Of a stretch of 64,000 nucleotides of DNA, positions 2,349 to 15,969 are shown one piece after another (within the stretch, counting starts at the first letter, position 1; every line of letters starts with the position of its first letter). Position numbers and translations under genes: made by a program. The notes under the pieces were generated by a model. That model was given only the letters and a program-made list of their open reading frames with translations, searched no databases and was not told where the DNA came from. The stretch comes from Pedobacter sp. (GTDB lineage: Bacteria > Desulfobacterota > Desulfuromonadia > Desulfuromonadales > Syntrophotaleaceae): positions 936,679 through 1,000,678 of the forward strand of contig JBFWJC010000001.1 of NCBI GenBank assembly GCA_050253415.1, given 5' to 3'.

Positions 2349-3143
2349 GTGAAAAAGTGGTTTGTTGCAGCAGGTGTGGTGACAGTCGCACTGGTGGTTC
2401 TGGTGGTCGTCGGAGTCTCCAATCTGGGACCCATTATCAAACAGGCGGTCAACTCGCAGGGCCCCGGGGTGACCGGCACCGATTTGCACGTGGGAAATGT
2501 TGACATTGCCTTGTTTTCCGGTCGTGCCAGCATCGAGGATTTTTTGCTCGGCAACCCCCAGGGGTTTGAAGCGCCCTATGCTGTGTCGGTTAAAACCATC
2601 AAGGTCGATATCGACGAAAAATCTCTGACCGGGGATACCGTGATTATCGACCGTATCGAAGTGGTCGCACCCCGTATTATATTTGAAAAAAATCGCGGAA
2701 GCGATAACTTCAAAGCTTTGTTAAGCAATGTGCAGAGGTCCTCGGCAGGAGCTGAAAAGGACGCTGCAAAGGCTGATGCAGGGCGTAAAAAATTACTGAT
2801 CCGGGAATTTATCCTGCGAGATGGCAAGGTGAATCTGGCCATTAAGGGGCTTAAGGGGAAAGATCTCACGGCCTCATTGCCTGAAATACGCTTGGAAAAT
2901 ATCGGACAGCAGCAGGGGGGGGCGACTCCGGCTCAAGTTGCCAAGGAGGTTTTTACCGCGCTTTATGGCAAAATCACCTCCGCGGATATGAAGGACGTCC
3001 TGCAGAAAAACCTGTCCGATGTGAAGGGGCAGGTGTCCGGTCTCAAAACAGGGGCTGAAAAGGAGCTGGATGCGACCAGGGAACAGACCACGCAAAGCGT
3101 GGATGCCGCCAAGGAGTCGCTTAAGGGGCTGCTTGGTAAATAG
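2349..3143 (+). CDS. AsmA-like/DUF748-like membrane-anchored protein
   Basis: N-terminal TM helix, LGNPQGF and beta-rich middle, helical C-terminal tail; GGAG RBS before GTG. Confidence 0.7.
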   Translation: MKKWFVAAGVVTVALVVLVVVGVSNLGPIIKQAVNSQGPGVTGTDLHVGNVDIALFSGRASIEDFLLGNPQGFEAPYAVSVKTIKVDIDEKSLTGDTVIIDRIEVVAPRIIFEKNRGSDNFKALLSNVQRSSAGAEKDAAKADAGRKKLLIREFILRDGKVNLAIKGLKGKDLTASLPEIRLENIGQQQGGATPAQVAKEVFTALYGKITSADMKDVLQKNLSDVKGQVSGLKTGAEKELDATREQTTQSVDAAKESLKGLLGK

Positions 3144-3164
3144 TGTATCCATAGAGTTAAACAG

Positions 3165-3195
3165 AACGGGCCTGCCACTGGCAGGCCCGTTTTTT
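3165..3195. terminator. Intrinsic terminator between convergent genes
   Basis: aacgggcctgcc-act-ggcaggcccgtt followed by a T run. Confidence 0.85.
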
Positions 3196-3595
3196 ATTTG
3201 CTGTTGGTAGCTTCGGCGTCAGGCAGATCGAAATCGGCCAGCACCCCGGAAAAGCTTCGCTCGTTGGGGGAGGAGCATCGGTAGATGAAACTGTCCATTT
3301 TCAGGTAGGCCTTGCCCTTGGATGGCTTGTACCGGATTCGCATGCGCCCTTCGGCGGTATTGGTTTCCGATGACAGGTAAAATTGACGGAAGGGTTCGTC
3401 CGGACCGAGGGTGAACTGGGTAAGAACTTCATCATTGATGGAAAAATGCACGTTGACTTGTTGGTCGGTGGTCATTTCCCATTCCATGTCAAAACAGCCG
3501 AACAGTTTGCTGCCGGATGTTTCGCCGGCTATGCAAGAGATAGCCCCTGTGCCGATCAGCAGCAGGGCGCAGAGCAGGATTTTGATGAATTGCAT
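3194..3595 (-). CDS. Exported hypothetical protein
   Basis: Signal-peptide-like N-terminus, GGAG RBS, beta-rich body. Confidence 0.7.
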   Translation of the reverse strand: MQFIKILLCALLLIGTGAISCIAGETSGSKLFGCFDMEWEMTTDQQVNVHFSINDEVLTQFTLGPDEPFRQFYLSSETNTAEGRMRIRYKPSKGKAYLKMDSFIYRCSSPNERSFSGVLADFDLPDAEATNSK

Positions 3596-4376: not shown

Positions 4377-4395
4377 GAGGAAAGGGGCTCAGAGC

Positions 4396-4989
4396 TTAAC
4401 GACGGGTGTCATGGCGGCCTTGTGGTAAAGCAGGTCCGGAGGGGCCGAAGGGGTGACAGCGATTGCATGACCGGACCGGTTCGCTGCGGTTGACGTGGCA
4501 TCTTTCGCACAGCGCCATGGCCGAACGGGCTTTAACCGGAACCATGGTGGCATGGGCCAAACCTCCATGACAGGCGGTGCATTGTACCCCACGATCGAGG
4601 TGCAGGGCATGATAAGTGTTATGTGTTTCGCTGGGGCCGGGGTGTTCCCTCAATGTTTCGCCGGGGTGGCATTTATTGCAATTGGCGTTTGGGACTTCGG
4701 CCATCAGGATGGGACCGCTGATACGGCCGGTTACATAGGCATAGAGGTAGCGGGCACCGGCCATATGAGCCTTGATTTCGCCGCGCCAGCCTGGCTCGGA
4801 ATGGCACGACAGACAACTCGTCGTCATGGCGTGGTCCGAATTGCGCCATGAAATATAGCGGGTTTCCATCAGGTGGCAGGATGCGCAAAATCTCGGCGTG
4901 GAAGACCATGCCAGTAGCCCCGTCAGGACGGCTATGCCAGCCAGTGTGATCATGCCTCCGATGGCAAGCCATTTGCGTGTGCGCCGCAT
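4396..4989 (-). CDS. NapC/NirT-like membrane-anchored hexaheme cytochrome c
   Basis: N-terminal TM, STPRFCASCH..M...Y.SW..S.H; six CXXCH (CASCH, CLSCH, CNKCH, CTACH, CERCH, CNRCH). Confidence 0.88.
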   Translation of the reverse strand: MRRTRKWLAIGGMITLAGIAVLTGLLAWSSTPRFCASCHLMETRYISWRNSDHAMTTSCLSCHSEPGWRGEIKAHMAGARYLYAYVTGRISGPILMAEVPNANCNKCHPGETLREHPGPSETHNTYHALHLDRGVQCTACHGGLAHATMVPVKARSAMALCERCHVNRSEPVRSCNRCHPFGPSGPALPQGRHDTRR

Positions 4990-5046
4990 GAGACCCCTTT
5001 GTGGATGTCCCGGCTGGAGGGTACGGTCCTGCCAGCCGGAAAGGCA

Positions 5047-6267
5047 TCAAGGTGTTTGTGGTAAAGGCCGCCGCGCGGCGTCAAGCCGTAACTGGAGCTG
5101 TGCTGGTTCGTGTTTATCATGGTGGTGGCAGCTATTGCAGGAGTTGGGCTGCTTGTTTACATCGCCGTCTCCCAGTTCCACGGTAAGACGCGGTGGGATA
5201 AAGCGGAATGTATGAGTGCGCTCGTCACCCACGGTAGCACTCTTGCCGGTAGCGGGCATATGGCAGGAGATGCAGTCGCTGTGCTGGGGCGCATCTTTGA
5301 TGGGGGCATGACCGCTGACCGGATCGGTGCTGATGGTGGCATGACAGCCAAGGCACAGGTTGTTGCCCGCAACCTTGGTGGAAAAACGATTGCCGGTGCT
5401 GTGGGTGGTGTGGCAGTCCAGGCAGCTTACGCCAGCCTTGAAATGCTGAGATGTCTGCCATTCGGGGTATTGTTGCCGGTGCTGTTTGATCGCCCCGGAA
5501 GGCCACCAGGCGCTGCTGTCATCATAACCGGCCACCTGGAACATGCTCGGCAACAGGCGCTTGCCAACTTGAAACCCAACTGGATAGGCATGTTTGCCAT
5601 CCGGCGATTTGCCACGGGTGTGGCATTGCCCGCAGATATCCGCGGCCAGGTGCCAAGGCAACTTGGCCGGGTTGATAATGGTGTTCGCTCTGGCCAATCC
5701 GCGCGCTTTGACATGGGCGACGCCGGGACCGTGGCAAGCTTCGCAACCGATGCTCAACTCCGCCCAGCTGTTGTCGGCAGGCCAGAAGCCGGTCACATGG
5801 CAGTACGCGCAGTCGGTTTTCCAGTTGGGGCCTTGGGGGTCGCTGAAGTGGTAAGGGGCCCAAGTGTTGTCGACCATATTCCACTGAAATTTCTGCACTT
5901 CCCAATCGGCATTGATATAGCGCTGTTTCCAGAGAACGCCGTGTACCAGCATGATATCTGTTTTTTTAAGGTCGCCCAGGCTGGTGACGGAAACGGACTG
6001 TCCCGATGCATCTTTGGTGGTGAAATCGGGAGGGGTAGCCCAATCGCCGAGGATTGCAGGATCGTCCGGACCGTTGACCTGTCGGATAACCATGGAGTGA
6101 GGGGTGGTTTTCCAGGTAGATGCAATGCGATCGTGGCACTGGCCGCAGACAGCTGAACCGACATAACCACCGGGTTTGGCTTCTACCTGCGCGGGATCTT
6201 CACCGCATCCGCCTGTAAAAGCCATGGCCGCCATAGACAGAAACAGTAACATCCAACGGTGTGCCAT
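5047..6267 (-). CDS. Octaheme cytochrome c, probable lipoprotein
   Basis: Eight CXXCH (CGQCH, CAYCH, CEACH, CGQCH, CLDCH, CLGCH, CISCH, CNSCH); signal ending FTGG-C; GGAGG RBS before ATG at 6267. Confidence 0.9.
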   Translation of the reverse strand: MAHRWMLLFLSMAAMAFTGGCGEDPAQVEAKPGGYVGSAVCGQCHDRIASTWKTTPHSMVIRQVNGPDDPAILGDWATPPDFTTKDASGQSVSVTSLGDLKKTDIMLVHGVLWKQRYINADWEVQKFQWNMVDNTWAPYHFSDPQGPNWKTDCAYCHVTGFWPADNSWAELSIGCEACHGPGVAHVKARGLARANTIINPAKLPWHLAADICGQCHTRGKSPDGKHAYPVGFQVGKRLLPSMFQVAGYDDSSAWWPSGAIKQHRQQYPEWQTSQHFKAGVSCLDCHTTHSTGNRFSTKVAGNNLCLGCHATISTDPVSGHAPIKDAPQHSDCISCHMPATGKSATVGDERTHTFRFIPPRLTVELGDGDVNKQPNSCNSCHHHDKHEPAQLQLRLDAARRPLPQTP

Positions 6268-6342
6268 TGAGCACCTCCCCTGTCGGTTGAAAAAATTTAC
6301 TCTTTTCAATCTACCGGACAGGAAAGGTTTGTCAAATGTCGT

Positions 6343-6969
6343 TTACCGATACTCGATAAGCCAGTCGGTGGCGGGTAAAGTCAGGTGGATCCGGTGGGGG
6401 TGATCACCAAGTTCTCCTTCGCTTTCGGCCAGTTGCCCGCGACAGGTAATGCGATAAGCCTGACATTGGTCAAGGCCGGTGGCTTGGAGAAATGCTTCTG
6501 TGCGTACCATGAGGGATACAACGCCGACCAGGGTACCATCGGAAAGAATCGGACTGCGCATGGCGATCAATCTCGGTTGCACTATAGATCCATGCCCGGG
6601 TTCGCTTAACTGGGAGGTGGGGGTGGTGCGCATTCGATCCCAGAAGTAGTCCAGTTCCTGAACTTTTTTAAGGTCAAAACCACGTGCCAGAAAATTACGC
6701 GAAAAATAGACCTGCCGGATGATGAAACTGTCATCGATCAAGGTGGCGCCGTATAACCCATCGATATCCGATACCAGCGGTTTCATGATGGAACGAAAGG
6801 TGTCGGGGGTCGGATGCTGTCTGGCGGCACGCTCCAGTTTTTCGAACATCCCTGCAAAATAGTTTTGTACCGATGCCGCCATCTGAGTCTCGCTCGGAGC
6901 GGCCATGGATGCAGAGGCGAGCAGACAGAGTGCCACACAAATGCTGAAAATGCGCATCAAACGTTGCAT
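6343..6969 (-). CDS. Exported stand-alone Cache/PDC-like protein
   Basis: Signal peptide (..LLASASMA), Cache-like LSEP...LIAMRSPI...LVGVVSL and terminal WLIEY; no second TM; AGGAG RBS before ATG at 6969. Confidence 0.65.
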   Translation of the reverse strand: MQRLMRIFSICVALCLLASASMAAPSETQMAASVQNYFAGMFEKLERAARQHPTPDTFRSIMKPLVSDIDGLYGATLIDDSFIIRQVYFSRNFLARGFDLKKVQELDYFWDRMRTTPTSQLSEPGHGSIVQPRLIAMRSPILSDGTLVGVVSLMVRTEAFLQATGLDQCQAYRITCRGQLAESEGELGDHPHRIHLTLPATDWLIEYR

Positions 6970-6979
6970 GCTGTAACTC

Positions 6980-7645
6980 CTAATTTTCAAGATAAAAGAT
7001 CGAAATATGCCCGGCGTGGTGGGAAACCTTTTGTACCAGGGAGAAACCGGCCGCGTTTAGAGCCTCGACCAGTTGGCCTTCGATGTTTTCGCGTATTTCC
7101 TCTTGGTGGAACAACCAATATCCGGACCAGGCGCACAGCTTGCCGAACAGATTGCTCGGCGTGTCGACATCGACAATCACCGCGCGCCCGCCAGGTTTCA
7201 ACACCCGGCGCAGTTCCGCCAGGGAGGAGTTTTTGAGATCACGGTCGATATGGTGATAAAAGAAGGTCGATACCGCCGCATCAAAACTGGCATCGGCAAA
7301 GGGCAAATTTTCGGCCAATGCCGTTTCAAAGCGCAGGTTGGCAAGACCGGCGGCTTTGCGCTGTGCAACCGCGATCATTTTGGCTGCAGCGTCGATGCCG
7401 ATGGCTTGTTCGTCAATCGAACCGTCCAGTACCTTTGCCAGTTGACGGGTCAAAATGCCGGTGCCGCAACCGATGTCGAGTACTTTTTCGTCACCACGCA
7501 GGTGCAACAGCTCAATGGCTCTCTTTCGATATCGGCCTTCAAGCCCGAGGGTCATGACCGGTGCCAGCAGGTCGTAGACCGATGCGGCGTGATCGAGGGT
7601 GCGGCCGCGGGTTTTTAAAGAAGCGGGGTCGCGTTCAGCAGGCAT
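6980..7645 (-). CDS. Class I SAM-dependent methyltransferase (UbiE/Methyltransf_11-like)
   Basis: VLDIGCGTG, GID, AENLPFADASFD, RVLKPGG; start overlaps upstream gene by 11 nt. Confidence 0.92.
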   Translation of the reverse strand: MPAERDPASLKTRGRTLDHAASVYDLLAPVMTLGLEGRYRKRAIELLHLRGDEKVLDIGCGTGILTRQLAKVLDGSIDEQAIGIDAAAKMIAVAQRKAAGLANLRFETALAENLPFADASFDAAVSTFFYHHIDRDLKNSSLAELRRVLKPGGRAVIVDVDTPSNLFGKLCAWSGYWLFHQEEIRENIEGQLVEALNAAGFSLVQKVSHHAGHISIFYLEN

Positions 7646-8684
7646 GGCTGAGATCCTCCAGGTCGAGGACATTGAGCATCGAGCAAGCCATATCGTGGCT
7701 GCGCCCATGTCCGAGCTTGAGACCGTTATTGGCTAAGGTGGCCAGGGCCCCGCGCATGGTGTCGAGGGCCAGTCGCAACGTCGGCAGGGCGGCATGCGGC
7801 ACTTCCCGGTAGAGACGCTCGTCCAGGTCGATATTGCGGATTGCCCATTCGTTCAAAATGGGATGACTTTCGCAGGCCAGTATGGACAGAACGTAATTGT
7901 GCCGATTCTCCACAAAGTCACGGGCCATGTCCCGCAGGTCGTCCAGCAACTGGCAGCCAAGGCCGAACTGCAACAGTGCGTTTTTGATGGTTTGCAGGCG
8001 AACCGGATCCAGATGGGTGTCCACGGTTTCCGGCCCCACGAAGGGAATGTGGAAGAGCAGTCCTGTCTTGAGCACATGAATGGTATTCATCACATAGTGC
8101 GGTTCGGGGCGAAGGGTAATGCCACCTTCTTCCGAGGCTTCCTGTGCAGCGCTTGGTAACAGGACCTGCAGCGCCCGGTCCCCGAGTTCAATCGCCTTGG
8201 CGGCCGGTATCACTTTATTTTGTACCGCTTCATCCAGCAGGTGGTGCAATGCACGGTCGGCAGCCATGATGGCCACCACCTGATTCATGACCCGCGAGTT
8301 TCCGGGCATGGCCAGGGGGACAACGACTTTGTTTTCGTCATCAAGCAGGTTGTCGGCACTGGTCACCCAGATCCGGAACAGGTGATTCAGTTTCCCGTAC
8401 AGCAGTCGGCGTTCCGGTGAAATATCGAGAATCTGATAGGTCGCCTGGAACAGGGAGGAAAACAGGTTCTTGCGCCGCTTGTAAAAAGTGTCAGGGATAT
8501 CCCCCATGCGTACCCGATATTCTTCAGGGGTGTCTGCGGAGGTGTTGAGTGTTTTGTCGAGCAGAGAATAGATCCCACGCATGCACTGACGCTGTTCTGC
8601 AAACGCACGCTGCATGATGCGGCCTGTTTCCCAGAGGTCTAGCCAATTGCGGGGCGGTAAGGGACTCAGAGCTTTCCATGCCAT
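7635..8684 (-). CDS. Class 1 isoprenoid synthase fold enzyme (trans-prenyltransferase/terpene-synthase-like)
   Basis: First Asp motif ADNLLDDE, KTGLLF, second motif GLGCQLLDDLRD, then RHNY. Confidence 0.8.
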   Translation of the reverse strand: MAWKALSPLPPRNWLDLWETGRIMQRAFAEQRQCMRGIYSLLDKTLNTSADTPEEYRVRMGDIPDTFYKRRKNLFSSLFQATYQILDISPERRLLYGKLNHLFRIWVTSADNLLDDENKVVVPLAMPGNSRVMNQVVAIMAADRALHHLLDEAVQNKVIPAAKAIELGDRALQVLLPSAAQEASEEGGITLRPEPHYVMNTIHVLKTGLLFHIPFVGPETVDTHLDPVRLQTIKNALLQFGLGCQLLDDLRDMARDFVENRHNYVLSILACESHPILNEWAIRNIDLDERLYREVPHAALPTLRLALDTMRGALATLANNGLKLGHGRSHDMACSMLNVLDLEDLSHAC

Positions 8685-8786
8685 GAATTCTGCCTCGTTT
8701 CTGGAGTGGTGGGCGGTATGCGCCAGATGACGGTTGATGTATGCACGGGATTATGAAAACAAATCACCCGCCTAGTCTCCAAATTG

Positions 8787-8802
8787 AGCAAAAAATCTGC
8801 CA
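8787..8802 (-). promoter_or_regulatory. Sigma54 -24/-12 promoter for the isoprenoid-synthase cluster
   Basis: Minus strand TGGCAGATTTTTTGCT = GG-N10-GC, ~100 nt upstream of ATG 8684. Confidence 0.75.
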
Positions 8803-8855
8803 TGTTTGTAACCTTCTAAAAATATTACGTTTTGTTTGTAGTGGTGTGATTTTGT

Positions 8856-8912
8856 GTACAAATATTTAAACAAAAAGCGTGCGTCTCGACTAAAACAGTC
8901 AAGTATTTGTAC
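8856..8912. promoter_or_regulatory. Inverted repeat, candidate activator (bEBP) binding site
   Basis: GTACAAATA (8856-8864) and TATTTGTAC (8904-8912), just upstream of the sigma54 site. Confidence 0.45.
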
Positions 8913-9087
8913 GCATTTCACGTTACCGCAAGCGCTCGCATGGGCTGACTGAAAACGATAATCCTGCCCCGGGGGGAGTCTACGCGGGGCAGGTCAGGTC
9001 GGCAGGCCAGCTCGATGTGGTTCCGTAACGGTTCCGTTCACTTGAGTCGGATGTTGTTGAATCGTTGGCGCAATGGTGTTTGGCCGG

Positions 9088-10954: not shown

Positions 10955-11227
10955 CTAAACGGGGGCAATCCCCAGTATCGCATACGATCTCTGTTTAGCG
11001 TCCGGAGTTATTTCAAAGATGCTGTTCAATTTGGAACAGGGGAACTCTATGCAGTTAGCGCAGAGGGCCTGCCTATTGCGTTGTGCGCACAAGCGGATAG
11101 GACAATCCTTGCCGCAAATGTTGGCATTTGGCCCCTCAGACCGACAACCGGTGCAATGATTTTTTTCAAATGCGGAAGCATGAAAGGCCTCGCAGTATTC
11201 GCAGTCGCGTCCACAATACCCTAGCAT
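10955..11227 (-). CDS. DUF3795-like small Cys-rich protein
   Basis: YCGRDCEYC...CTGC...C...CPIRLCA...CANCIEFPC; GAGGAGG RBS before ATG 11227. Confidence 0.85.
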   Translation of the reverse strand: MLGYCGRDCEYCEAFHASAFEKNHCTGCRSEGPNANICGKDCPIRLCAQRNRQALCANCIEFPCSKLNSIFEITPDAKQRSYAILGIAPV

Positions 11228-11681
11228 GGCGGATTTCCCTCCTCTGATATCAATAAAGGTATGCCACATTTCTTCGAGAGTTGCCATGCACCCGATGAGT
11301 GCCATGATCGTTTGAAAAATGGGCTGGAAATATGCATGAATCTCAAAGGATATTACCTTTGAGGTGGTTAATTTTTGTGAAATTAAATGAATTATAAGAA
11401 AAAAGCAATGGTTTGTTCTTGGCACATCCTTCTGGTCACAGAATTGCAAGTATGCAATAGGCGGCAACCGGGTGCTGGTTTTAGGAATCCATTGTTGACT
11501 TGCGTAGGGAAATAACCTAAACCTACAGACCTGTGGTTCTTTTGGCGGGATGTCATTGGTATATGATCGGATGGGTGTTTTGTAATATGGGTTGTGATGG
11601 CAAGTATTGATTATGTGTAAAAGAAGAGAATCCTGATCCATATTGACTTGAGTATTACCAACCATGGAGAGCTGATTTCGA

Positions 11682-12155
11682 ATGGAATATAAGGACATTA
11701 TCAAGGAAGCGGTCATTGACATATTCTCAAGCATGGTATTGCTTGATATTTCAGTGATCGAGGGGGGCACGCCTGGCCCAATAGAAGGTCCTATGCTTTC
11801 TGGCATGATCGGACTGGCCGGTGATCTTCAGGGAACCGTCCTGATTCATCTGCCTGTTCCTGTAGCCATTGACATTACCAACGCCTTTTTGGGATTGGAA
11901 ATCGACACGGTGGATGATGATGTCAAGGATGCTATTGGTGAGTTGGCGAATATGGTTGCAGGCGGGGTTAAATTTCTGGTTCCCCAGAAGGGGCAGGATA
12001 TAGAGCTGGCAATTCCATCGGTAGTGTGCGGTCAGTCCTACAGTTGCGAAGCGACAGGCAGATTTGATCGTACTTCAGTGCTTTTTGAATTAGGTTCAGG
12101 GCGTTTTATCGTAGAAATGCAAATAAAAGCCGCCAGCAGCATGCTGAGACGCTAA
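11682..12155 (+). CDS. cheX: Chemotaxis phosphatase CheX family
   Basis: SGMIGLAGDLQG, DAIGELANMVAG (E-x2-N), IPSVV. Confidence 0.88.
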   Translation: MEYKDIIKEAVIDIFSSMVLLDISVIEGGTPGPIEGPMLSGMIGLAGDLQGTVLIHLPVPVAIDITNAFLGLEIDTVDDDVKDAIGELANMVAGGVKFLVPQKGQDIELAIPSVVCGQSYSCEATGRFDRTSVLFELGSGRFIVEMQIKAASSMLRR

Positions 12156-12240
12156 GGACCGTTCTACAGTAAGGGAAGTATCTCTGAGCGAATTAAACAT
12201 AATCTTCAAGGATTTTGACTTCTTGGGAGATGCTAGCAGG

Positions 12241-12272
12241 AAAAGGACGGCCATGCGGCGGTCCTTTTTTTA
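12241..12272. terminator. Bidirectional intrinsic terminator
   Basis: aaaaggac...gtccttttttt between convergent genes. Confidence 0.7.
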
Positions 12273-12325
12273 TGGTGAAATGATATGCCGGGAGAGATTC
12301 GCATCGGCAGGCGTAGACGCATCGG

Positions 12326-12508
12326 TCAGGTATTAGGTTGCATGGCGCATTTACGGCGGAAGATGGCGCAGGCTTGAAAATTGCCGACACAGAAAAGCAC
12401 GGTGTTTTGAATGTCGCTGCTGGTCATTTTCATGAAATAACACTCCTCGTGTTCTTCCTTGACCAGCGGGCATAGGTGATTTCCTGTGTTGATTGATGGC
12501 AACGTCAA
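12326..12508 (-). CDS. Small Cys-rich hypothetical protein
   Basis: CPL..E.HEECY..M.S.DI.....FC..NF..C..F; lies between a sigma54 site and a terminator. Confidence 0.6.
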   Translation of the reverse strand: MTLPSINTGNHLCPLVKEEHEECYFMKMTSSDIQNTVLFCVGNFQACAIFRRKCAMQPNT

Positions 12509-12610
12509 ACCCTAACTATCAGCCGATGCCAGGTAGTCCGGCATAGTATTTTAATTGTTGGAGGGTAGCTGTGCAGGCGAGCGGGCCTGCTCCTTCAGAT
12601 AAGGTGAATT

Positions 12611-12626
12611 AGCAACCTTTATGCCA
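12611..12626 (-). promoter_or_regulatory. Sigma54 -24/-12 promoter
   Basis: Minus strand TGGCATAAAGGTTGCT (GG-N10-GC). Confidence 0.75.
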
Positions 12627-13209
12627 GTTGCCGAAACTTGGTGCAAATCGCGGGATATTGTGCCTTGAAAAAGTGATTTGCGACGAGCGGGTATACGTTA
12701 TTCAAGAGAAGAATTTGTTGTCGCCAAGGCTGTGGATCTCAGGTTTGAGCGAGGTTAGAGCGCTTTGTGTGTCAGTGTGTCGCTGTGTATTGGCGCGGCA
12801 CGAGTGTGACAGGTTAAAAGAAGTGCTGGATAGTGTTTCAGGCTTAGTGGCCTGAGAAAAATGTTTCAAGTGTGTGGCAAGTGCCCCAGGCAATGTCAGC
12901 ATTTTTGGGTCATGTCACATACGATCGCGTATGAAATCTCCTGTATCCGGTAACCGTAAGCACGGTCACTTATCTGGCGAATTATTATGCATGGACGGGG
13001 TGTGTTTGCCGGACGCATTTCCTGGCGAACCGGCAAGTGGTTTATGCAGGTAAACGTGGCAAATAAGCCAGAGAAATTTGTGTGTCTGGCAAGGCGACGC
13101 AAAAATTGCCTATTGGCGCTTCAAGTCAAGTTGGCACAACCCCGCAATGCTTGATGCGGGTCGGCATTCGATTTCAGCATCAAGGTACGCAGGGTTTGCG
13201 AGGGGGCGG

Positions 13210-13587
13210 TTATCTTGCAAGCCAATGGAGGGCGTGATCCCGGTCAAAGAAGAAATTGAGGCGGTCTGTTTGTTCCGCTTGAATTTGCATCAGGGACAGG
13301 ACGCTTTCGTTGAAACGGTGCTGATCTGAAAACAATAAGGCGGTTCTTTGGGATTGCCCCAAAAACATCTGGTAGGCACTGCCCAGAGTGTCGTTGGTGT
13401 CGCCAGAGGCCAGAGCCGTTGTCTTGCGCTTATCTATGAGAACCTTGTTGATCTTCTGTGTTTGGGCCAGTGCCAGGGTTTCGGACAGAGCACTGATAAT
13501 GTTCTGTTCGGTAAAGGGTCCGTAAATCTCGAGTTGAATGATCTCGGGTTCTTGAAGAGTTGATATTTGCCAGCCTGAATGGGCCAT
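13210..13587 (-). CDS. STAS/SpoIIAA-like small protein
   Basis: KVLIDKR, RTALL, C-terminal FFDRDHALHWL. Confidence 0.75.
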   Translation of the reverse strand: MAHSGWQISTLQEPEIIQLEIYGPFTEQNIISALSETLALAQTQKINKVLIDKRKTTALASGDTNDTLGSAYQMFLGQSQRTALLFSDQHRFNESVLSLMQIQAEQTDRLNFFFDRDHALHWLAR

Positions 13588-13648
13588 GTTGTTACTCGAT
13601 ACTGGTTTGAGGTGTTATAGCTGCTATCCGGGAACTGGCAGGATACAA

Positions 13649-13664
13649 CGCAAAACTGAGGCCA
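13649..13664 (-). promoter_or_regulatory. Sigma54 -24/-12 promoter
   Basis: Minus strand TGGCCTCAGTTTTGCG (GG-N10-GC). Confidence 0.65.
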
Positions 13665-13932
13665 GATAAGCCAGTTCCGTCCAGCTACCTGTCGATAATT
13701 TGATCTTGCGTTGAAAATGATATGTAATTTTAGGGAATTACCAGAGGGAAGAAGTATCGAAAGTTATTTTGGAGCGCCGTGAATTGGTAGGCATGCATAG
13801 GGTTACGCTATGACGCAGTGCCATTTTATGAAACAAGAATCTAAAAATGGGACAGTCTGGAGCGCAATATACCAGGGGGGGGAAGCCCATGTCGCTGGTA
13901 TGTGAAAGCTCTGTGCAACGATGGGCTATTTT

Positions 13933-15969
13933 TCAAGCAGGGAGATCGTTGTCTCGGGCTACCTGATTTCGGCCGTGTTTTTTAGCCTGGTAGAGGGTCT
14001 GATTGGCTCTGACAATCAGTTGTTCGTAGTTGTTGTCCTTGCTCGGTTGCATGCTGGCTATACCGACACTGACCGTGACCACACCTTTTACGTCTTCGCC
14101 GGCATGGGGAATCTGTAGCGCCTCCACCATTTGTCGAATCTTTTCGGCAAGAGGGTAGGCTGAATCGGTATCGCTATCAGGAAGAATCACTGCAAACTGT
14201 TCTCCACCGAAGCGTGAGATACGTTCTTCGTCATTAGGGGTGGCCTCTACCAGCGTTTGGGCAATTTTTTTGAGACACTGGTCCCCGGCCTGATAACCGT
14301 AGGAATTGTTGAAATGCTTGAAGCGATCCATGTCGACGAGGATTAACGCCAGGGGGGTTCCCTTTTGTCTGGCGCGCTGCCAGTAAGAAGGCAGGGCGGC
14401 ATCGAAACTGCGGCGGTTTGCTATGTCGGTCAAGGGGTCGAGCATGGCAAGTCTTCGCAGAAACTGTTGGGCGCGGCGCCGTTGCTGAACTTCCAATTCA
14501 AGTTTTATGTTGGTTTGTGCCAACGTTTCTGTGCGTTCGTTGACCCGTTGTTCCAGTTCGCCGCGAATGATACGCAATTGTTCCAGGGCGTCGGCCAGTT
14601 TTCGCGTTCGGACATTGAACCAGTATGCAAAGGTTCCGAATTCATTGCGAAAATCGTCTTTTAGACACAGCATTTCCTCAGCGTTGATGTCCACGGCATT
14701 CTTTAACTGATGGGTGATGCGGGATAAAGGGCGCATGAGCATGCTGTTGAGAGTGAGAAACGCTCCGATAACCGCTGCCGATACACAGATAATCAGTGCC
14801 GCCAGTATGGCATGATAGATAACGGTGGCGGCGGACATGGCATGACTCACCGGTGTCACGGTGACGATTTTCCAGTAGGTGTTGGGTACGTGGAAAATAG
14901 CGATGCTGCACGGTTCCTTCAGGAGAAGGTCGTCGGGCGTCGTGAAGTGTTTCAGAAGAATCTCTTCGTTGTTGCCACCGGGCCAGGGATCTTGGAGAAC
15001 GGCAGCGATAAGCTCGGCTTCTTCTGTCGATACCTGGCTGCCGTCGTTGGCAATGACTTCGGCAATGCGGCGATCATACAAGTTGGACTGTTTCGCTTTC
15101 TTTAGCAGATCGCTGCTGCTGTCATAGAGAGCCTTCGCCAGAGGCGCGAATGTCGGTTGTCGGTCTGCAAGGTTGCGAGCCAGGATATATTCGATGTGCT
15201 TCCGTCCAAATTTGTCCTGGGTGGTATCACGGGTGATGGTCACATCGGGAAAGGAAAGAAATTTGCCGTTGCGGTCGACGGCAAAAGCATATCCGCCCAT
15301 TTTTTTTGCCTGCGCATCGAAAAATGCTTCGAGTCCCGCCAGCTTAAGGTCGACGGTGACCACGCCCACAAAGTGATTATCCCGATAGATGGGGGCCGTA
15401 CAGGTAACCATGGGGACCGAGGTGTGTGGGTCGACGTATGACTTGGACCAGAAAACCTGATCCGGCTTTAAAAAACGACCCGGAACGTACCACTCCTCAT
15501 GATGATATCCGGGGCTACGAGGGTCGTTGTAATCTTCTACAAACTCAAGGGTGCCTTTGGCATTACGTCCCCAGAAAAAACTACGCCGTTCACGGTTGGC
15601 GTCGAAGGCATACGGTTCGTACCACACTCCGCCGCCTATAATGAATGAAGATGGACCAAGTTCATCGATGAGGCGTGGAATTATTTTCATGTGATCCTGC
15701 GCCCTGAGGGGCAGGTTTGCACTGGTGGTTGCAAGGGCTCGTGCCAGGGTTTCGGCGACCGCCAGACGCTCGCCGAGCTGGGCTACCATGGTGTTTCCGA
15801 CCTGATTGACCATCCGAAAGGATTGTTCCTCCAGGCGTGGTCGGCCGATGGTATCCATGATGATGGTGAGACTGACCACCAGCACGGCAAGCAGCAGGAG
15901 AAACAGCAAGGGGGTGCGAAACAGAAGACTGTTATACCAACGCACAGAAAAAGCGTTCCTTTCGTTCAT
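13933..15969 (-). CDS. Membrane dCache sensor with a degenerate GGDEF domain
   Basis: Two TMs flanking a Cache domain; DPLTDIANRR, DMDRFK, RFGGEQF, TVSVGIA, LYQAK..GRN. Confidence 0.9.
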   Translation of the reverse strand: MNERNAFSVRWYNSLLFRTPLLFLLLLAVLVVSLTIIMDTIGRPRLEEQSFRMVNQVGNTMVAQLGERLAVAETLARALATTSANLPLRAQDHMKIIPRLIDELGPSSFIIGGGVWYEPYAFDANRERRSFFWGRNAKGTLEFVEDYNDPRSPGYHHEEWYVPGRFLKPDQVFWSKSYVDPHTSVPMVTCTAPIYRDNHFVGVVTVDLKLAGLEAFFDAQAKKMGGYAFAVDRNGKFLSFPDVTITRDTTQDKFGRKHIEYILARNLADRQPTFAPLAKALYDSSSDLLKKAKQSNLYDRRIAEVIANDGSQVSTEEAELIAAVLQDPWPGGNNEEILLKHFTTPDDLLLKEPCSIAIFHVPNTYWKIVTVTPVSHAMSAATVIYHAILAALIICVSAAVIGAFLTLNSMLMRPLSRITHQLKNAVDINAEEMLCLKDDFRNEFGTFAYWFNVRTRKLADALEQLRIIRGELEQRVNERTETLAQTNIKLELEVQQRRRAQQFLRRLAMLDPLTDIANRRSFDAALPSYWQRARQKGTPLALILVDMDRFKHFNNSYGYQAGDQCLKKIAQTLVEATPNDEERISRFGGEQFAVILPDSDTDSAYPLAEKIRQMVEALQIPHAGEDVKGVVTVSVGIASMQPSKDNNYEQLIVRANQTLYQAKKHGRNQVARDNDLPA

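Follow-up and report, generated by a model that had tools for sequence, protein, structure and literature searches.

In a 64,000-nucleotide stretch of a Pedobacter sp. genome (contig JBFWJC010000001.1, positions 936,679 to 1,000,678; hereafter the window, whose own numbering is used throughout), five co-oriented genes encode a synthase-like protein, a methyltransferase, an exported protein and two multiheme cytochromes. The favoured reading, which is given about an even chance, is that these genes form two units: a conserved trio (6343–8915) that makes a methylated isoprenoid bound in the periplasm, and a cytochrome pair (4396–6335) that stands beside the trio only in this species lineage. The five genes are as follows.

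7635–8684, minus strand: syn, synthase-like gene, 349 aa, predicted trans-isoprenyl-diphosphate-synthase fold
6980–7645, minus strand: MT, class I S-adenosylmethionine (SAM)-dependent methyltransferase, UbiE/COQ5-like, 221 aa
6343–6969, minus strand: exp, exported protein of predicted double-Cache (dCache) fold, 208 aa
5047–6267, minus strand: octaheme c-type cytochrome, probable lipoprotein, 406 aa, 8 CXXCH motifs
4396–4989, minus strand: NapC/NirT/NrfH-type membrane-anchored cytochrome, 197 aa, 6 CXXCH motifs

A preliminary description, made from the sequence alone, had treated all five genes as one system, and its account of the local layout is reproduced on re-examination. All five genes lie on the minus strand, and a Shine-Dalgarno-like purine run precedes each of their starts. 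The MT gene begins at an ATG behind GGAGG and overlaps the syn stop by 11 nt (ATGCCTGCTGA), an overlap through which the two genes would be translationally coupled. The exp ATG, with AGGAG in front, follows 10 nt past the MT stop, and gaps of 75 and 57 nt precede the octaheme gene and the NapC/NrfH-like gene, respectively. The heme counts of the two cytochromes, eight and six CXXCH motifs, were likewise recovered.

The first three genes are conserved as a unit. A pattern and tblastn scan of one genome per species confirmed 98 syn loci, 80 of which were kept for comparison. By tblastn, MT follows syn at 78 of the 80 loci, both exceptions ending at a contig edge, and exp follows at 71, with six of the nine misses lying at contig ends; the loci that have room for exp yet lack it are L027, L068 and L078. 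The start-stop overlap of syn and MT, or a near-abutment, recurs in most lineages. Carriers belong to the Desulfuromonadales, Verrucomicrobiota, Kiritimatiellota, Lentisphaerota, Planctomycetota, Omnitrophota and Nitrospirota, and are mostly members of the PVC group (Planctomycetota, Verrucomicrobiota and relatives). Downstream of the trio, a DUF1847 gene and the gene after it are present at seven and six, respectively, of eight Desulfuromonadales loci; apart from two recurrent partners described below, the remaining neighbours (rhamnosidase, FolD, hybrid-cluster protein, LDH and others) vary from locus to locus. No description of the syn-MT-exp combination was found in the literature, in a library that is itself incomplete.

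Within the order, a search of 201 genomes found full-length syn orthologues (at least 60% identity) confined to the window's own family, in 9 of 16 other genomes, including four of six in the genus. In a quick maximum-likelihood tree (LG+G4, with support from the Shimodaira-Hasegawa-like approximate likelihood ratio test, SH-aLRT, only) of 80 syn sequences rooted on four rows from a sister family, with the short L073 sequence dropped, the window and eight Desulfuromonadales loci form one clade with a support of 90. This clade is nested among syn sequences of the PVC group, Omnitrophota and Nitrospirota, with branch supports of 88 and 93, and the nested single clade therefore suggests that the Desulfuromonadales lineage acquired the cassette once.

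The cytochrome genes do not share this conservation. By tblastn, they stand beside the cassette at one of the 80 loci, that of the nearest relative (L001), and are not found beside it at the other 79. Comparison by blastn gives the break points of the segment that carries them, and a promoter-like match lies in front of the first.

4390–6341, minus strand: segment with both cytochrome genes, in the window and in L001, missing from L002–L004
6308–6335, minus strand: sigma70-like match TTGACA-16-TAGATT (10/12), in the 75-nt gap before the octaheme gene

In L002, where syn is 96% identical, the DUF1847 gene begins 120 nt after exp, and L003 and L004 agree. Relatives of the octaheme gene occur at seven loci, and apart from L081, which is on the same contig as L001, none adjoins the cassette; three of the seven are in metagenome-assembled genomes (MAGs) whose cassette lies on a different contig. 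The NapC-like gene directly follows the octaheme gene at all five loci with enough downstream DNA (L081, L082, L084, L086 and L087); at L087 its match is split in two pieces, and the gene may therefore be broken there. The sigma70-like match is conserved in L001 but is no more than an agreement with the consensus, as three such matches fall in the region against 3.7 expected; the DNA upstream of the octaheme gene could not be aligned with that of its relatives at other loci. The preliminary description had counted the cytochromes as part of the system. The absence of the segment from L002–L004, the self-standing pair elsewhere and the sigma70-like match in front all tell against this, and from gene order the pair appears to be an independent respiratory module, tied to the cassette by position only.

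The cytochrome pair looks like an ordinary module of NapC/NrfH type with an octaheme partner. The octaheme protein matches the Cytochrome_C554 and paired-CXXCH families and, partially and below cut-offs, decaheme families; its N-terminal segment ends in AFTGGC, which we take to fit the lipobox pattern. The hexaheme protein passes PF03264 (53.7 bits against a cut-off of 24.1) and has an N-terminal anchor (hydrophobic residues 7–30), and it falls under the equivalog cut-offs for NrfH (TIGR03153, 57 versus 134), napC_nirT (30 versus 311) and TorC (35 versus 478). NapC-type proteins exchange electrons with quinones, and NrfH and NapC carry four CXXCH motifs. The hexaheme resembles an NrfH/NapC quinol dehydrogenase with a multiheme partner in its PF03264 match, its single N-terminal anchor and the octaheme partner found in five of five loci, but differs in having six CXXCH motifs and in scoring below the NrfH, NapC and TorC equivalog cut-offs. 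No reductase gene lies beside the pair.

The syn protein matches no Pfam family at E<=0.01 and no NCBIfam model. PF00348 does not recognise it, and a search of the whole genome with PF00348 returns three other genes, which are canonical synthases encoded elsewhere and cover housekeeping needs. The wider syn family is a large set of proteins annotated as hypothetical (875 matches at E<=0.001 among the candidates scored), a few of which bear a precomputed PF00348 match. An AlphaFold2 model built on an alignment of 20 relatives has a mean predicted local distance difference test (pLDDT) score of 88.9. With this model Foldseek retrieves polyprenyl synthases at a probability of 1.00 and template-modelling (TM) scores of 0.5–0.57. 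VIA-align, which is independent of Foldseek, places medium- and long-chain trans-isoprenyl diphosphate synthases at the top (Z 19.3–17 over 270–290 residues, root-mean-square deviation 3.4–4.0, identity ~12–17%), followed by the non-elongating prenyltransferases MoeN5 and Ord1 (Z 14–16) and the class I terpene cyclases (Z ~11). The model thus assigns syn a predicted all-helical class I isoprenoid synthase fold. A terpene cyclase was considered as the closest class and rejected, given a Z of ~11 against 19 for the trans-isoprenyl diphosphate synthases.

Three motifs are invariant in the syn family: D111-N-L-L-D115-x-E117-x-K119, K206-T-G and D248-D-x-R-D252. The first sits at the end of a helix where the first aspartate motif belongs, and departs from the DDx2-4D plus RRG pattern in having Asn112 for the second aspartate and no RRG; the canonical synthases of this genome read DDVVD...RRG and DDLPAMDDDDFRRG at that place. 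The second DDxxD (D248-D249-L-R-D252) and the KT lysine (K206-T207) are retained, and the family profile aligns this stretch to the same motifs of farnesyl diphosphate (FPP) and geranylgeranyl diphosphate synthases; against the genome's canonical octaprenyl-type synthase, the hhalign alignment is limited to the KT-DDxxD stretch. No isopentenyl diphosphate (IPP)-binding motif of the GKRxR type was recognised in syn, and the protein has no hydrophobic segments. Relative to the trans-isoprenyl diphosphate synthases of PF00348, syn therefore shares the overall fold, the KT motif and the second DDxxD, but lacks the DDxxD...RRG first motif and the GKRxR-type IPP site, and has x-E-x-K after D-N-L-L-D. 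It does not look like an ordinary chain-elongating prenyltransferase, being missed by PF00348 in a genome with three canonical synthases elsewhere. In StheQ, a ComQ-family enzyme whose first motif is D-E-x-x-D, a Mg ion is held by the first and fifth residues, so the D-N-x-x-D of syn is compatible with metal binding. Most likely syn ionises a prenyl diphosphate, as it retains both the KT lysine and the aspartates that bind metal (D111/D115 and D248/D249/D252).

MT passes the broad Pfam model PF01209 (UbiE/COQ5; 71 bits against a cut-off of 20) and falls below the UbiE/MenG equivalogs and subfamilies, with 96.6 versus 158 bits for TIGR01934 and the NF0012xx models far under their cut-offs. Its matches in the PDB cover the SAM-binding core only. 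The MT profile has 139 solved relatives, and no methyltransferase of geranyl diphosphate (GPP), FPP or IPP is named within the 60 best of these; TleD, which we take to be a methyltransferase acting on a prenyl group, ranks second among them, again through the SAM-binding core. MT has no hydrophobic segments, and a predicted complex of syn and MT scored 0.00, a result uninformative either way. Outside the window, at C1:36891-38419, the genome carries a UbiE-like MT paralogue (29% identity) less than 1 kb from a canonical polyprenyl synthase gene; the two are possibly the housekeeping menaquinone pair.

The third protein, exp, matches no Pfam or NCBIfam family at E<=0.01, the Cache-clan Pfam models included, and its profile search returns only its own family. 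Its AlphaFold2 model (pLDDT 89.4) consists of a long N-terminal helix and two PAS-like alpha/beta modules. Foldseek matches this model to the sensor domains of KinD, CqsR, CtaA, PctA-C, DctB and LuxQ (E 3e-8 to 5e-5, TM up to 0.65) and, more weakly, to PcrK and AHK4, with a WalK-YycH model also among the matches; a protein atlas independently puts exp beside CHASE/dCache clusters. The only hydrophobic segment is N-terminal, as a signal peptide without a C-terminal anchor, and all orthologues open with signal-peptide-like N-termini. The chain stops after the last strand, with neither a transmembrane receptor context nor an output domain. Among 1.84 billion representatives, the family comprises 34 clusters at 50% identity, all of <=271 aa, and no longer or fused relatives were found, a search that is weak evidence. 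The model thus predicts exp to be a secreted, stand-alone double-Cache-fold protein: it shares the fold and the extracytoplasmic site of Cache/dCache receptors, in which the domain is embedded with transmembrane helices and an output, but stands alone. The isoprenoid-synthase and Cache calls of the preliminary description are correct at this level of fold, as judged from the predicted models, Foldseek, VIA-align and the protein atlas.

Two residues, Cys176 and Trp203, are invariant in exp orthologues, the latter five residues from the C-terminus. A cysteine eight residues upstream of Cys176 is Ala or Val in several orthologues, so Cys176 is not simply a disulfide partner. Identity with the heme-Cache proteins was also considered; in a preprint these are DUF3365 proteins with a CXXCH motif, and exp, which has no CXXCH and no DUF3365 match, was rejected as a member. 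The small open reading frames (ORFs) in the place of exp at L068 and L027 are unrelated to it by hhalign with the exp profile.

Other genes recur around the cassette and its relatives. First, of the 61 loci whose downstream DNA extends for 900 nt or more, 32 have a short-chain dehydrogenase/reductase (SDR)-type NAD(P)-binding protein after exp; its matches to the lipid reductases OleD and HpnA are weak and below cut-off. Second, 22 of the 68 loci with sufficient flanking sequence have an orthologous HAMP histidine kinase, 40–67% identical between loci, next to the cassette. Three types of this kinase were examined. Two of them have two membrane helices and a loop of ~25 residues, and therefore no sensor domain of their own; the third type (Omnitrophota, Nitrospirota) has a periplasmic stretch of ~140 aa. 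At one Omnitrophota locus (L067:5841-13132), an OmpR-type response regulator/histidine kinase pair lies on each side of the cassette and SDR, with every gene on the same strand. Third, syn relatives of 32–39% identity occur in 27 further genomes of the order as a sister family, 23 of whose loci were examined (L091–L113; the other four are on very short contigs or at contig ends). An FtsX/MacB_PCD-type permease, LolCE-like by NCBIfam and below cut-off, adjoins the syn-like gene at all 23, with an adjacent MT homologue (41–75% identical to the query) at 13 and an ATP-binding cassette (ABC) ATPase at 10; exp is found at none of them. Main-family loci that lack exp show comparable partners, with a MacB-type permease just downstream in L027 and an MMPL transporter in L078. 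The theme common to these loci would be a cytoplasmic enzyme pair with a partner working on the periplasmic side of the inner membrane, and the sister family with its LolCE/MacB-type permease appears to be an uncharacterised conserved module in its own right. In the complete genome that carries L091, a group II intron reverse transcriptase/maturase (L091:2272-3714) and an IS4-family transposase (L091:6919-8388) flank the sister module.

These features suggest how the trio could operate. Soluble syn would ionise a prenyl diphosphate and soluble, UbiE-like MT would act in the same pathway, the two yielding in the cytoplasm a methylated, isoprenoid-type lipophilic molecule. This product would reach the periplasm or the outer face of the inner membrane, where Sec-exported exp would bind it; exp might then serve as co-sensor for the small-loop histidine kinase that is its neighbour in about one third of loci; alternatively, it might be a carrier. 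A LolCE/MacB-type ABC permease occupies the position of exp in the sister family. Within the window's genus-level clade, expression of the cassette would be driven by a sigma54-type promoter. In this species lineage the cytochrome unit, a quinol-dehydrogenase-like hexaheme of NapC/NrfH type with a periplasmic octaheme lipoprotein, lies between the cassette and its usual neighbour DUF1847. Because acidic and basic residues in an isoprenyl diphosphate synthase (IPPS) fold are combined with tight coupling to MT and an obligate extracytoplasmic partner, a methylated isoprenoid bound outside the cytoplasm fits; catalysis, product and binding by exp are what we infer from that combination. What is shown is the gene order with its conservation, the motifs, the indel and, as predicted models, the folds, whose likeness to known structures does not establish function. 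This part of the preliminary proposal stands as the best reading, while its dedicated electron conduit, with cytochromes at 1 of 80 loci, is not supported. As to the role of exp, a receptor is suggested by its sensor-domain fold and by the small-loop kinases, a carrier by the LolCE and MMPL partners at related loci.

Several points weigh against this account of a two-unit locus with an isoprenoid-making trio. With no PF00348 match, an Asn in the first motif and no RRG, syn could be inactive or use a non-prenyl substrate. MT resembles solved structures in nothing but their generic SAM-binding core, and its best 60 of 139 matches include no prenyl-diphosphate methyltransferase. At loci with the trio only, the account offers no route by which a cytoplasmic product would cross the membrane. 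The kinase is missing from 46 of 68 loci, and the window's genome has no orthologue of either the SDR or the cassette-linked kinase (best matches 25% and 28–30% identical), so the sensing arm, if real, is incomplete here. Lastly, no terminator is predicted between exp and the octaheme gene and the arrangement is stable in the populations of three other studies, so the cytochromes may be locally co-expressed with the cassette.

A more specific version of the favoured reading, that the trio both synthesises and perceives a signal, is tentative and put well short of an even chance. The molecule would be a small methylated isoprenoid, serving as a lipophilic autoinducer or a signal of envelope state, and exp its dedicated receptor, docking on a small-loop kinase where one is encoded or, in this genome, on an unlinked partner. 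If true, PVC bacteria and some Desulfuromonadales would share a signalling cassette based on an isoprenoid, the first of this kind among Gram-negative bacteria, and the sister family would export a related product through a LolCE-type ABC system.

It is also possible, if rather doubtful, that the target of the cassette enzymes is an isoprenoid of the membrane, which they would modify, for example a polyprenyl phosphate carrier, the side chain or head group of a quinone, or another prenyl lipid, and that exp is a periplasmic lipid chaperone or extractor and no receptor. The closest folds to syn are medium- and long-chain prenyl diphosphate synthases, MT is UbiE/COQ5-like, the sister family is paired with LolCE-type permeases (extractors of lipid-anchored cargo), an MMPL transporter replaces exp at one locus, and the frequent SDR has its below-cut-off matches to OleD and HpnA. 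Against these stand the nearest structures to the exp fold, all of them sensor domains, and the recurrence beside the cassette of a kinase with almost no sensing loop; moreover, the patchy distribution in the genus (four of six other genomes searched) is more what one expects of an accessory trait than of a core lipid.

An unlikely alternative makes syn catalytically dead, with a regulatory or scaffolding role comparable to that of the small subunits in heteromeric prenyl synthases, and leaves the chemistry to MT alone. The missing Pfam match, the altered first motif and the lost RRG are compatible with this, and the non-catalytic GPP synthase small subunit and heptaprenyl synthase component I are among the fold matches (Z 12.8–13.4). 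However, the best fold matches are catalytic subunits, and across phyla, where overall identity is ~50%, no variation is seen at D111, D115, D248, D249, D252, K206 or a large number of basic residues, as is typical of an active site.

The single five-gene system of the preliminary description, in which a methylated isoprenoid or prenylated redox carrier is bound by the Cache protein and the cytochromes provide a dedicated electron conduit, is very unlikely. It draws on the co-orientation and short gaps, the lack of a terminator-like site between exp and the octaheme gene, and the UbiE-like character of MT. The arrangement is also retained in the nearest relative, and contigs from three other studies read through both segment boundaries and include the cytochromes, so it is fixed in this species-level lineage; contigs from four DNA runs contain no joint that skips 4390–6341, although contigs cannot show absence. 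Opposed to it are the adjacency at a single locus, the lack of the cytochromes in L002 despite its 96% identical syn, the self-standing pair on other contigs of cassette-carrying MAGs, the sigma70-like match in the gap, and the fact that most carriers are PVC bacteria without such neighbours. Shared orientation and close spacing, taken by themselves, had led to a five-gene system being over-predicted here, and annotation should treat the two cytochrome genes as a separate respiratory module.

The comQXPA operon likewise includes a histidine kinase, and ComQXPA shares with the cassette an IPPS-fold enzyme, a secreted product and a kinase (22 of 68 loci here). It is nonetheless most improbable that syn prenylates a peptide or protein, possibly exp at its invariant Cys or Trp, with MT capping the product as in ComQ/ComX or eukaryotic prenylation with carboxyl methylation: IPPS-fold enzymes that prenylate the Trp of secreted signal peptides do exist (ComQ, StheQ, PalQ, Ord1), exp has Cys176 and Trp203 near its C-terminus and a kinase recurs nearby, but the ComQ family keeps the first aspartate motif and has a degenerate second (NDxxx), the reverse of syn, no small peptide gene lies next to syn, where MT overlaps, and exp, folded, of ~180 aa and with a Sec-type signal peptide, would be an unusual substrate for cytoplasmic lipidation. 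ComQXPA differs further in acting on a short peptide where the cassette has a folded dCache protein, and the methyltransferase is present throughout here.

Two other kinds of system invite comparison with the trio. Non-canonical terpenoid pathways also place a SAM methyltransferase gene next to one for an enzyme of the class I isoprenoid-synthase superfamily, as in GPP methyltransferase with 2-methylisoborneol synthase, FPP methyltransferase with sodorifen synthase, and the IPP methyltransferase Lon23 of longestin. To our knowledge, a secreted Cache-fold protein is not part of such pathways. The trio differs from them in that syn is nearer to chain-elongating synthases (Z 19) than to cyclases (Z ~11), MT is UbiE-like with no prenyl-diphosphate methyltransferase among its best 60 of 139 solved relatives, a Cache-fold third partner is present (71 of 80 loci), and the hosts are mainly PVC bacteria and anaerobes. 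Lon23, humMT and GPP methyltransferases are described in a review of non-canonical terpenoids. Periplasmic accessory proteins that feed kinases are known from LuxP-LuxQ, TorT-TorS and YycH/YycI-WalK. Like these, exp is an extracytoplasmic protein without an output domain encoded beside a kinase; unlike them, it is itself of Cache fold, and the kinase is almost loopless and absent from most loci and from this genome. Signalling by solute-binding proteins of this kind is covered in a further review.

If the proposed mechanism is true, the trio represents an unstudied branch of the isoprenyl-synthase superfamily that comes with a methyltransferase and an extracytoplasmic binding protein of its own. 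The trio is kept at ~50% identity over at least six phyla, mostly of poorly studied anaerobes, and offers a small clonable unit in which to seek a new modified isoprenoid and its receptor. Its third member, exp, is also a rare example of a secreted Cache-fold protein that stands alone and for which the gene neighbourhood allows a guess at the ligand.

Upstream of syn, the sigma54-type site and the inverted repeat claimed by the preliminary description were both found, together with a hairpin that follows the upstream gene.

8787–8802, minus strand: sigma54-type -24/-12 element TGGCAG-N5-TTGCT, ~100 nt upstream of syn
8853–8867 and 8901–8915, minus strand: arms (GTACAAATA / TATTTGTAC) of an inverted repeat, candidate activator-binding site, upstream of the sigma54-type site
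8963–8993, minus strand: GC-rich hairpin (9-nt arms, 100% complementary) with T-rich tail, following the upstream DUF2339 gene

The sigma54-type element fits the TGGCAC-N5-TTGCW pattern, with GG and GC 10 nt apart. The bare pattern is weak, with two matches in the window against 0.39 expected and two reached in 5 of 100 shuffles; the whole genome has 36 strict sites. The element is invariant across five aligned sequences (the window and L001–L004) despite diverged flanks. Of the 74 related loci with sufficient upstream sequence, five have it, namely L001–L004 and one PVC locus, so sigma54 control would be local to the window's genus-level clade and not cassette-wide. The arms of the inverted repeat are 15 nt long, 87% complementary and 33 nt apart, and both half-sites are invariant or nearly so in the same five sequences. 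The genome encodes RpoN and ~25 sigma54 activator genes, none of the latter within the window, and as the 4.1-Mb genome has no second copy of the repeat pattern, no regulon points to a cognate activator. The hairpin at 8963–8993, which a consensus terminator scan does not list, probably separates the DUF2339 gene from the cassette. A second exact match to TGGCA-N6-TTGCW lies at 12611–12626 on the minus strand (TGGCATAAAGGTTGCT), between CheX-like and dCache-GGDEF genes in an AT-richer stretch (GC 0.45–0.50 over ~11000–14000).

Two further features of the window concern other genes. A 283-aa ORF at 10955–11806 (minus strand) matches DUF3795 in its last ~70 residues only. Its N-terminal two thirds are poorly conserved (42–64% identity, versus 79–86% for the neighbouring DUF2339 gene), and the true start may therefore lie further downstream. 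At 3163–3193, between the convergent genes 2349–3143 (plus strand) and 3194–3595 (minus strand), a 14-bp GC-rich hairpin with T-runs on both sides is likely a bidirectional terminator.

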